DNA from: an uncultured Psychroserpens sp.
Lineage (GTDB): Bacteria > Bacteroidota > Bacteroidia > Flavobacteriales > Flavobacteriaceae
Reading direction: 5' to 3'
Assembly (NCBI RefSeq): GCF_947500255.1
Contig: NZ_CANMRL010000009.1
Coordinates: 4,692 to 68,691 of the forward strand
DNA length: 64,000 nt
A program made the translations under genes and the position numbers. Positions within the stretch are counted from its first letter, which is position 1. Each line of letters begins with the position of its first letter. The notes under the pieces were generated by a model. The model had not been told where the DNA came from and ran no database searches. It saw only the letters and a list, made by a program, of their open reading frames with translations. Below are positions 56,643-58,000 of the stretch, piece by piece.

Positions 56643-57572
56643 TTAGCTTAATTTAGATTTAGGCTTATAAATAAACATAAAGTAAAGTCCGATAAGTATA
56701 AAAGGAATACTTAGTACTTGTCCTGTATTCATAAATAGGACATAATCATCCCTGCCGTCGACTTGGGCTTCTTTTACAAACTCAACAAAGAATCTAACTG
56801 TCCATAATAACACTAAGAATAATCCAAATAAGAAGCCTTGTTGTTCACTCTTTTTAGTTTTCCAATAGACAAATAATAAGATGAGAAACACAAAAATATA
56901 ACTCCCAGCTTCGTACAATTGAGCTGGGTGTCTATAAGGCACATTTTCTAGATATTCAGCATACTTAGGATCGCTACCTAATTTGCTATATGCATCTTTT
57001 ATATTTTTAAGTCCAGTAATCTTTTCAACATCATATTTATTGTATTGATCCTGAACAAAGCGTACACCTAAAGATGACTCTGTAACTTTACCAATAATTT
57101 CAGAATTAATAAAGTTGCCCAATCTCACAAAAACAGCACCTAAAGCTACAGGTACAACAACACGATCTAAAATCCAAAGCACCGTTTTTTTCAATACTTT
57201 TTTATTGTAGAGATACATCGATATAATCATTCCAATAGCTGCTCCATGACTGGCAAGACCTTGAAATCCTGTAAATTCAAAGCCCCCTTTAAATTTAAAA
57301 GGAAGAAAAATGCTAAAAAAGTCTTGTGAAATCAATTCAGATTGGTAAAAAATAACATGCCCCAAACGTGCGCCTAGCATGATGCCAACAACCGAATAAA
57401 TGAACAATGAGTCTAAAGATTCATTGGTTTGGTTTTCATTCTTATACATACGTTTCATAATGGTGAAACCTAACAAGAATGCGACAATCCACATAATACT
57501 ATAATAATGTAGAGTAAAGAAGCCTAGATCTATTCCTTTAGAAGGATTCCATGTCATTTGAAGAGCAAGCAT
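56643..57572 (-). CDS. lgt: Prolipoprotein diacylglyceryl transferase
   Basis: GARLGHV, LASHG, RLGNFINSEI, RHPAQLYE. Confidence 0.95.
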   Translation of the reverse strand: MLALQMTWNPSKGIDLGFFTLHYYSIMWIVAFLLGFTIMKRMYKNENQTNESLDSLFIYSVVGIMLGARLGHVIFYQSELISQDFFSIFLPFKFKGGFEFTGFQGLASHGAAIGMIISMYLYNKKVLKKTVLWILDRVVVPVALGAVFVRLGNFINSEIIGKVTESSLGVRFVQDQYNKYDVEKITGLKNIKDAYSKLGSDPKYAEYLENVPYRHPAQLYEAGSYIFVFLILLFVYWKTKKSEQQGFLFGLFLVLLWTVRFFVEFVKEAQVDGRDDYVLFMNTGQVLSIPFILIGLYFMFIYKPKSKLS

Positions 57573-57648
57573 ACATTTAATTTTTGTTGGGATAAAGATA
57601 GTATTTATGTCTAAACTACCAGTATTGTTAAGATAGTTTTAATCTTCT

Positions 57649-57808
57649 TTCTCCGGAACTGGATCATAGCCAGATTTTCCCCAGGGCGACTGAACGAAGG
57701 AAAGAATGTACGGTGTACATTTTTAGTGAAAGTGCGAGCTGGTGCGCTGGTAAATTTTTAGTTGTCATCCTTCTCCGGAACTGGATCATAGCCAGATTTT
57801 CCCCAGGG
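57649..57808. mobile_element. Miniature insertion or scar at the yidD 3' end
   Basis: Exact 38-bp direct repeats (57649-57686, 57771-57808) around a 67-bp foreign core and a 17-bp inverted copy of yidD sequence. Confidence 0.65.
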
Positions 57809-58000
57809 ATGACAACTAAAAATACGTTTAAGTGCTAATCTCCCTCCTTTCCAAAGGCCATGTTTTTCTAATGCTTCTTTGGAGTAGTGTGAACAAGTTG
57901 GCTGAAATCTACAAGTTGCAGGTGTTAGTGGAGAAATCAAAGTTTGATACACTTTAATTAAAAACAGAAAAGGTGCAACTAGGATACGTTTCATGATCAA
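57758..58000 (-). CDS. yidD: Membrane protein insertion efficiency factor
   Basis: [10 protein letters not shown]...[13 protein letters not shown]. Confidence 0.95.

Follow-up and report, generated by a model that had tools for sequence, protein, structure and literature searches.

A hairpin repeat unit with a duplicated gene end behind yidD in marine Flavobacteriaceae, and its apparent relation to a dispersed stem-loop family

How does a conserved gene come to be closed by an inverted copy of its own coding sequence, with its former end displaced behind a short insert? The question is raised by yidD in an uncultured Psychroserpens sp. (Flavobacteriaceae; contig NZ_CANMRL010000009.1), of which a stretch of 64,000 nt, here called the window, was analyzed and compared with genome and metagenome sequences. 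The genes around the insert run in the order cysS-yidD-lgt-DUF192-secDF, and the features of the locus, all on the minus strand, are as follows (loci in other genomes and contigs carry three-digit numbers such as L002).

57758..57994 (-): yidD coding sequence (78 aa, PF01809), whose last five codons and stop (EKDDN-TAA) come from the repeat unit
57807..57823 (-): L17, the IFSCHP codons, ATTTTTAGTTGTCATCC; host sequence and 5' arm of a 17-bp hairpin
57771..57808 (-): direct-repeat copy 1, 38 nt (CC + M36); live coding end of yidD and loop of the big hairpin
57754..57770 (-): L17', GGATGACAACTAAAAAT, exact reverse complement of L17; the DDN codons and the TAA stop lie within it
57687..57753 (-): 67-nt core, apparently of a yidD-linked sub-lineage of a dispersed stem-loop family; GCTCGC at 57734-57739, end ...GTCG
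57689..57733 (-): predicted core stem-loop (P1, P2 and P3), with an A-tract and a U-rich tract on its flanks
57649..57686 (-): direct-repeat copy 2, 38 nt, equal to copy 1 and out of frame with yidD, at a spacing of 122
57639..57648 (-): displaced old yidD tail, AGAAGATTAA (..ED-stop), identical to the tail that closes yidD in the empty alleles L002 and L055
57573..57638 (-): original yidD-lgt spacer, conserved relative to the empty allele

An inverted-repeat search finds the arms L17 and L17' 36 nt apart and matching over all 17 nt (100%), and the direct repeat (CCCTGGGG...GGAGAA), exact at 57771-57808 and 57649-57686, can be extended to 44 nt at 95% identity. The chance expectation for a perfect 17-nt inverted repeat and a perfect 38-nt direct repeat within 700 nt is of the order of 1e-5 or less. 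The core is present once in the 64-kb window and had no match in 100 shuffles. The live stop codon of yidD lies inside L17', and the displaced copy (57639-57686) can still be read as the old YidD C-terminus, 15 residues followed by a stop. An earlier note on this DNA had described L17, its exact reverse complement, the 67-nt core and the 38-nt duplication at these coordinates and with these sequences, and translation confirms its account of a displaced old end with a stop at 57639-41 and of a live EKDDN-stop supplied by the inverted copy. The spacer at 57573..57638 can be read as containing a candidate TAnnTTT-like -7 box for lgt.

That the arrangement is real and not an artefact of assembly follows from contigs of independent public runs, which span both junctions (X1 records cover 57433-57678 and 57649-57800, and X3 covers 57662-57808), and from the separate assembly of Psychroserpens luteolus XSD401, which is 96.1% identical to the window over 6.2 kb and has the same architecture. 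An assembly artefact or a private rearrangement of the window strain would be in keeping with the fact that repeats of this type do break short-read assemblies, and the Algibacter MAG contigs L009 and L027 do end inside the unit; however, both junctions are reproduced by independent runs and assemblies and the architecture is seen again at about 90 loci in many genera, so that we give such an explanation a negligible probability. Misassembly and a one-off event were the two outcomes against which the earlier note had asked its own reading to be checked, and the same loci and contigs exclude both.

The core pattern was searched against one genome per species and returned 48 loci, all of them in Flavobacteriaceae, and the element lies directly 3' of yidD in 48/48 of these genome-representative matches (every locus with upstream sequence), the usual order being cysS-yidD-unit-lgt. 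Among the matches listed from metagenomes there are about 40 contigs with this yidD-type architecture. The carriers belong to a marine clade of the Flavobacteriaceae and include Psychroserpens, Winogradskyella, Algibacter, Lacinutrix, Bizionia, Hanstruepera, Geojedonia, Mangrovimonas and other genera, and of the 120 closest YidD protein clusters about half (some 58-66) end in ...KDDN or ...DDN. Three hosts with DDN-ending proteins, Hanstruepera flava, Psychroserpens sp. Hel_I_66 and Geojedonia litorea, have the same parts in the same order, with 38-mers that are alike within each genome and different between genomes. The direct repeat is thus made from each genome's own yidD sequence, as the earlier note had supposed, and the host gene is left intact with its stop provided by the element, another part of that reading that is borne out.

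Across these hosts the unit forms tandem arrays of 1-4 head-to-tail copies, each of 120-122 nt and composed of 38-mer, 17-mer and core, which terminate with a partial unit followed by the lineage-specific old tail. Two to four near-identical units with a partial end are present at L006, L016, L024, L026, L036, L089, L131 and other loci, and Bizionia myxarmorum is one of the hosts with 3-4 units. The left junction is at an identical position everywhere, and the right edge varies: most lineages have it behind the 38-mer, L007, L015, L032, L039 and L047 have it behind the 17-mer, and in L022 and L026 it lies within the core. Because the relatives show head-to-tail arrays of this same unit, the window is best described as an array of 1.3 units.

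The arrays also bear on where the inverted 17-mer comes from, which the earlier note had taken to be copied from the adjacent target at each insertion. L17' is present in every internal unit of the arrays with two to four units, where it is preceded by the end of a core rather than by L17, and L042 has it unaltered even though the IFSCHP codons there are ATACTGAAATGCCACCC. Its inner 12 nt (GGATGACAACTA) are nearly invariant across 72 distinct loci, its outer 5 nt are variable or missing, and against L17 there are about 6 compensated changes versus dozens of uncompensated ones. L17' is, to judge from this comparison of loci, a constant component of the repeat unit and not a copy made locus by locus, and the proposal of an arm templated anew each time has to be given up. 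The native yidD tail (AGAAGAT-TAAAAC) is already similar to L17', and we infer that the perfect match arose once, by hairpin-templated correction or by template switching. The near-invariance of the inner arm in spite of a seemingly dispensable tail peptide implies either selection or templated correction; under the former, what is selected could be a 12-17-bp hairpin that buries the stop codon.

Empty yidD alleles, which the earlier note had proposed to look for, were found at four loci, in each of which a single 38-mer runs straight into the old tail, so that the old tail is the live gene end: L002 (a metagenome contig near the window), L055 (Psychroserpens sp. XS_ASV72), L056 (Winogradskyella) and L057 (Oceanihabitans). 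The spacer to lgt is 64-70 nt long at these sites, except in Oceanihabitans with 137 nt, and the tail and spacer of L002 and L055 are those displaced in the window. L17 is as conserved in empty as in occupied sites, and its conservation is therefore independent of the element. We infer that the empty alleles arose through recombination between two 38-mers. The C-terminus of YidD thus depends on the allele, and contigs tend to break within the array.

The two 38-mers of a locus change together. In a blind mutual-information scan of 43 loci the top couplings were of the identity type, between column i and column i+128, and in 26/42 genomes the two copies are identical or have at most 3/38 differences. 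Between the window and XSD401 the 38-mer differs at two sites, each of them changed in both copies (57669/57791 and 57684/57806), and the element region is no outlier amid the patchy divergence of these two strains. In an Algibacter MAG a second unit is stranded 320 nt downstream and has decayed, its 38-mer included, which argues that a downstream 38-mer is normally kept by homogenization and not by a function of its own. The concerted change of the 38-mers, together with the variable right edge, points to a tandem repeat that undergoes unequal recombination and gene conversion, and in copy number, in coupling and in paired changes the unit behaves as a member of the concerted-evolution, minisatellite-like class of tandem repeats. 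Homogenization by gene conversion is also a long-standing proposal for REP sequences.

Those differences that do exist between copy 1 and copy 2 are at third codon positions in 65% of cases, against about 45% expected if only copy 2 drifted freely. In most lineages the displaced tail still reaches an in-frame stop after a few codons, and in L017, L037 and L043 copy 2 encodes a different but plausible YidD end. The third-position bias and the intact tail stops resemble DNA that coded until recently, or codes from time to time, more than a relic that has long been silent, and with the alternative copy-2 ends they suggest that occupied and empty alleles may be toggled within lineages by ordinary homologous recombination, or that the unit may occasionally be re-acquired together with donor yidD sequence. 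There is no sign of recent inter-genus transfer of yidD, as no two distant hosts show an anomalously high similarity in the gene upstream of the element, and core divergence does not track host divergence, a comparison that saturation of the host distances makes uninformative.

The core itself folds, as far as an alignment of 43 sequences can tell, as an irregular stem-loop supported by covariation. RNAalifold applied to this alignment returned P3 alone, and P1 and P2 came from the unbiased mutual-information scan followed by pair counts. The predicted pairs in the window are the following.

57731-57733 with 57689-57691 (-): P1, from pair counts
57726-57727 with 57694-57695 (-): P2, from pair counts
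57715-57721 with 57705-57711 (-): P3, with the loop ACC, from pair counts and RNAalifold

By pair counts 93% of the alignment cells pair, and sliding the partners lowers this to 36-44%. Of the 43 sequences, 26 have CG and 17 have UA at pair 120:162, which is never unpaired; pair 121:161 shows six standard pair types in the same set, pair 125:158 switches between GC and AU and is broken in 16, and CG, UA and AU are all seen at the apex of P3. P2 is broken in about 37% of the yidD-linked cores. P3 is an A/U-rich hairpin of 7-10 bp that contains just two G-C pairs; on either strand it is preceded by an A-tract and followed by a U-rich tract. A scan for consensus terminators did not call it on the yidD strand. 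The earlier note had proposed two hairpins within the core, and they fared differently: AATGTAC/GTACATT (57705-57721, loop ACC) is P3, real and conserved, and AGTGCG/TGCGCT is specific to the window, since the corresponding GCG/CGC pairs in relatives never covary and variants break the pairing. Rfam 15 had no relevant match to the window region at E values up to 10, and a scan of 12 dispersed-family loci at Rfam gathering scores gave nothing that matched the core. Flavo-1 and a SAM riboswitch are present elsewhere on L166. A reading of the unit as a carrier of small ORFs was dropped, as some of its indels between genomes are not multiples of 3.

A metagenome scan with the P3 pattern alone returned at least 120 loci, and among the matches listed about 39 are of the yidD type and 81 lie elsewhere. 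Some 55 of the 81 non-yidD matches listed share the pattern ...CGCGCC.GCTGGCC..TC.CTAAAAA-stem-ACY-stem-TTTTCTT.ACGCTC.GTCC over about 64 nt; the remaining ones listed belong for the most part (about 25) to a different conserved region, which has the hairpin alone in common. The dispersed copies follow unrelated genes, with the GTCC end typically 5-75 nt past the stop codon, and they rarely lie between divergent genes; single metagenome contigs can carry two or three separated copies, or short tandems of differing stem sequence. They covary at the same pairs as the yidD-linked cores (Y:Y' CG 29 and TA 7; Z:Z' TA 11, AT 9, CG 5 and GC 3). The core is therefore foreign to yidD, as the earlier note had held, in the sense that its repeat-family relatives are found elsewhere. 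Searches of the literature found no description of the element.

The dispersed copies also give an indication of strand. What appear as A-C mismatches on the yidD-sense strand are G-U pairs on the other strand, 8 of them at P2 and 29/45 at the base of P3, and the strand call from G-U versus A-C counts is clear in the dispersed family and ambiguous in the yidD set. It follows that the active strand of the family, whether RNA or single-stranded DNA, would be the one read from the adjacent gene, and that it is probably opposite to the orientation at yidD; relative to the upstream gene, the core at yidD is indeed oriented opposite to most dispersed copies. The yidD-linked cores differ from the dispersed copies in sequence as well. 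CTCGC is present in 32/41 of the former and in 0 of the latter, where CTGGC is found (34/48), as counted in the pattern-unbiased metagenome set, and the 3' end is ...GTCGCC in the former versus ...GTCC in the latter. The diagnostic CTCGC and the different 3' end point to one derived sub-lineage of the dispersed family with a single origin at yidD, and not to repeated insertions from the pool. The earlier note had asked whether other copies of the core have direct and inverted flanks specific to their loci, and they do not: flanking direct repeats above shuffled controls were absent in 43/44 dispersed copies, a single one having them. Another candidate, that the IFSCHP codons mimic a TTGTCAT-type tag (TTGTCATT) of a second REP-like repeat present at some loci, was rejected since the second repeat is not enriched in the window.

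Based on these data we now put forward a hypothetical course of events, to which we give a little over half of our belief, in which a REP/MITE-like hairpin was grafted once behind an ancestral yidD along with a duplication of the gene end and the locus was thereafter shaped by unequal recombination and gene conversion. In the founding event a member of the dispersed family would have been placed behind yidD together with the duplicated gene end, candidates for this step being a template-switch or a replication-repair type of insertion at a quasi-palindromic gene end. The perfect inverted 17-mer would have formed at that time, or later through hairpin-templated correction of the similar native tail. 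What the loci show is that the site has since then behaved as a tandem repeat, with arrays grown to 2-4 units and copies homogenized within each genome; loss would occur when recombination of one 38-mer with the other restores a single 38-mer and the old tail. We know of no REP or MITE mechanism that yields a 38-55-bp duplication plus an inverted 17-mer. On present evidence the locus does not reveal a new transposition chemistry.

The main competitor for the origin is close to what the earlier note had put forward, an active, non-autonomous, site-specific element mobilized in trans, which would insert at cuts staggered by 38 bp with the upstream 17 nt copied in inverted form, its arrays resulting from repeated insertion into the duplicated target. 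Such an element would explain why the direct repeat is drawn from each genome's own sequence, why occupied and empty sites coexist within genera, why displaced tails still resemble coding ends, why the left junction has the same position everywhere and why the core is part of a dispersed and presumably mobile family. It does not explain L17' in array units that have no adjacent L17, its constancy in L042 where the local L17 differs, or the large excess of uncompensated over compensated changes in L17'. The right edge of the arrays varies, the concerted change in strains that are 96% identical took place with no sign of re-insertion, the yidD-linked cores are one diagnostic lineage, and the dispersed relatives do not have flanks of this kind. 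Moreover, no recombinase or RT gene is found at or near the element in the window or at sampled loci, and the longer copies encoding an RT, HUH enzyme or recombinase that the earlier note had envisaged are absent from all of the roughly 90 loci; about 170 loci yielded no longer relative of the element with an ORF, and a second core copy is absent both from the 64-kb window and from the roughly 450 kb of yidD-type genomes that were sampled. We consider such an element unlikely. Of the non-autonomous, target-templated element of the earlier note, the foreign core, the host-derived direct repeat, the intact gene and the empty alleles thus stand; the templated arm does not, and separate insertions look improbable. 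The boldest version, in which guide-like or hairpin-directed insertion continues at yidD to this day and the wider family is a new class of structured 3'-end element, we also regard as improbable. In that version an enzyme encoded elsewhere would recognize a pseudo-end in the IFSCHP codons (TTGTCATCC), and an element of 84 nt would enter at staggered cuts about 38 bp apart, regenerating the gene end, with its arm kept perfect by templating; the arrays would be serial insertions, formally like the duplication of repeats at a CRISPR leader, and the wider family would act as RNA or single-stranded DNA, through conserved GA/GAA internal-loop bases and a putative protein partner.

A direct repeat of a gene's 3' end combined with a substitute end from the insert is likewise the classic signature of an integrative element, and the unit could accordingly be an attL-attR scar (CIME-like) of one that targets the yidD 3' end and brings a replacement gene end, a history with which the third-position bias of the between-copy differences would also agree. 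We hold this to be very improbable, given that the repeats are specific to the host and not to an element, that no larger element or integrase lies between the 38-mers at any of about 90 loci, and that the insert belongs to a family of short dispersed hairpins. The hairpin pattern, run against viral contigs, gave a single chance match, within a coding region, and a link to phage was discarded. Three other known processes were considered and rejected. A diversity-generating retroelement would have an RT, of which there is none in cysS-yidD-lgt-DUF192-secDF, and the copies are identical in the window and differ elsewhere mainly at third positions, not specifically at A. An intragenic inverton was dropped as none of about 90 loci has the 38-mer in inverted form, a spacer of 36 bp is too short for inversion and there is no recombinase. 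Translational bypass was dropped as the copies lie in different frames and a hop would alter almost nothing.

A separate matter is whether the unit is maintained by function or by drift or selfishness, a question that is compatible with the graft origin. The core may be a cis-acting element, a hairpin with a U-tract positioned between yidD and the lgt promoter that serves as a transcript end or in mRNA stability. In its full form this reading makes the unit a cis-regulatory RNA of the host that is under selection, tuning the termination of YidD or the 3' end of its mRNA and insulating lgt, with the 17-bp hairpin burying the stop codon and with tandem copies and losses as side effects. The core and L17' are far more conserved than the synonymous sites of the adjacent 38-mer, in hosts whose cysS is only about 67% identical across genera, the paired positions covary, and the element is located between yidD and the lgt promoter. 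There are parallels as well, since E. coli REPs that lie 15 nt or less from a stop codon are reported to stall ribosomes and lower translation (PMC12306157) and the ends of REPs often provide stop codons (PMC3733652). The clean loss of the unit in several lineages speaks against it, as do the frequent breaks in P2, an orientation opposite to the strand on which the family has its G-U pairs, the presence of just two G-C pairs in P3 and the failure of a standard terminator scan to pick P3 up on the yidD strand. A search for transcripts returned no run with the locus as RNA, metatranscriptome contigs from a related study do not extend over it, and a TARA contig carrying the element comes with no RNA run. 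We therefore view selection for such a role as a possibility, and a rather doubtful one.

The locus offers a clean natural case of repeats that evolve in concert, of arrays that expand and of loss without a scar, all at one bacterial site. A previously uncurated family of stem-loops appears to exist past the stop codons of unrelated genes in contigs from aquatic metagenomes, and one of its lineages appears to be welded to a conserved housekeeping gene, where it has rewritten the C-terminus and carries a spare gene end. The transcript-end signals of this phylum are poorly known, and the family is a candidate for Term-seq and for protein-binding assays. The locus is also a warning for annotation and assembly, as the array fragments contigs and the end of yidD varies from allele to allele.

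Among known systems the element is most readily compared with REP/BIME sequences, which are also short dispersed hairpin repeats just downstream of genes, clustered, and rare in divergent promoter regions. They too overlap gene ends and donate stop codons (PMC3733652), and termination, mRNA stabilization and stop-proximal effects on translation are among the roles reported for them (PMC3733652, PMC12306157); palindromic elements within the ORFs of Rickettsia are mentioned in the same context (PMC3733652). It differs from REPs in that there is no GTAG/CGTC tag at the ends of the core (GCCAACGCGCC... and ...GTCC or ...GTCGCC), in that the core, with its three parts and conserved internal-loop bases, is an irregular stem-loop and not a simple palindrome, and in that the yidD lineage occupies a single locus, head-to-tail with 38 nt of coding sequence and with a 17-nt arm complementary to the gene. 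CGTC-tagged palindromes do occur, though solely as separate outer modules of one dispersed sub-group. REPINs are mobilized by RAYT transposases (HUH, Y1), whose single-copy genes usually have REPs on their flanks, and no such gene lies near the yidD element in the 64 kb of the window or in the 2-14-kb loci from other genomes. With MITEs such as Correia/NEMIS, ERIC, RUP and the Rickettsia palindromic elements it shares the character of a small, structured, non-autonomous insert. Bacterial MITEs of this type, which insert at gene ends, are co-transcribed with their neighbors and can alter or extend reading frames and have terminator-like hairpins. However, the unit does not have terminal inverted repeats (GGATGAC versus GGCGAC is weak at best) and no related autonomous IS was found; L17/L17' is its sole inverted repeat, with one arm in host coding sequence, and the duplication at yidD is 38-55 bp long compared with a target duplication of 2-10 bp.

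Integrative elements and CIMEs resemble it in the direct repeat of the target end, the live end taken from the insert, the displaced old end and the possibility of tandem accretion, and differ from it in that the yidD insert is 84 nt long and has no integrase, its repeats follow the host and the unit is a hairpin repeat. Quasipalindrome and template-switch mutation produces perfect inverted copies of nearby sequence and templated insertions flanked by duplications, and the A-B-A'-X-B layout with a native tail similar to L17' is of this type (FoSTeS/MMBIR-type), but it is a mutational mechanism and not an element family, and it explains the origin only and not the long-term conservation. The yidD unit is thus provisionally filed, on its sequence features, as a variant of the REP/BIME/MITE-like repeats in which, unusually, the gene end is duplicated.

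Short tandems of units of the dispersed family, whose core relatives mostly lie 5-75 nt past the stops of unrelated genes, occur at the scanned loci L078/L082/L113/L116, L166:5511-5628 and L164:1276-1451. In these tandems the stem of P3, the palindromic hairpin inside the core, is wholly different (e.g. AAAAACAGCC-ACT-GGCTGTTTT) while the loop and flanks are retained, and such stem-swapped tandems are strong natural compensatory support for the hairpin. The L166 contig carries, together with its dispersed-family copies, two known RNAs, a SAM riboswitch and a Flavo-1 RNA (676-780 and 835-915), both scoring above the Rfam gathering score.

L081:4230-4350 and some 25 further metagenome loci (L062, L094, L109 and L127 among them) carry a second conserved region, and the AAAAATGTACACTGTACATTTT hairpin is the sole feature that this region has in common with the core repeats. 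It has the layout ...GGATGATTGTATTTGGATACAACACTTTACTAAAT..TAGTTTCAAATCGTATTTAG-hairpin-CTTAACGCCAAATAGTCTAAAATATAGCGAATGAGC, and ORFs of at least 60 aa are absent for about 90 nt around it. Many metagenome contigs are nearly identical over this region, and hence it may represent an unannotated RNA or leader region.

In Lacinutrix himadriensis (L032:4167-4420), the yidD unit is directly followed on its 3' side by another tandem duplication, distinct from it and made up of 2.0 copies of 129 nt at 96% identity; the end of yidD thus seems prone to duplication. The 129-nt duplication starts within the end of the 38-mer, the gene-end repeat, plus a GGAGGACAACTAAAAAG tail, and inside it is another kind of repeat, AGATTCCTCC...GTCGGAATGACA. 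In Bizionia myxarmorum (L036), the 5' part of yidD recurs in degenerate form (ATGAAAAAGTTTTATCAAATTTTTATTTCAACTCTGACACCAGCGAC...) between the array and lgt, about 80-200 nt beyond the three-unit array, and this second copy appears to be a pseudogene fragment. One Algibacter MAG (L009:374-418 and L114) has, besides its intact unit, a decayed extra one consisting of the core, a degenerate 38-mer and the tail; the decayed unit lies downstream, 320 nt away, with unrelated AT-rich DNA in between.

Within the window, positions 56700-56849 in the 3' part of lgt differ from Psychroserpens luteolus XSD401 at 24 sites per 150 nt versus a mean of about 6, and from this sequence comparison the segment is likely a recombination patch. 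At 57995-58000 the yidD ATG is preceded, two codons earlier, by an in-frame TTG that overlaps the cysS stop (TTGATCATG). It is ambiguous whether yidD starts at the TTG or at the ATG, the latter being the start in public gene calls.

The dispersed family also includes sub-groups, in one of which CCTCCCTTCGGGGGTTAGGGGGC is always next in line. Others are nested inside constant outer inverted modules, either CGTCATTCG ... CGTAATGACG or TTGTCATTTCGA ... TCGAAATGACAA, at these loci:

L058, L061, L088, L097, L130, L148, L160, L175: nested sub-group loci
L067, L076, L086, L095, L169, L172: further nested sub-group loci

These outer inverted modules are similar to CGTC-tagged REP-like palindromes.
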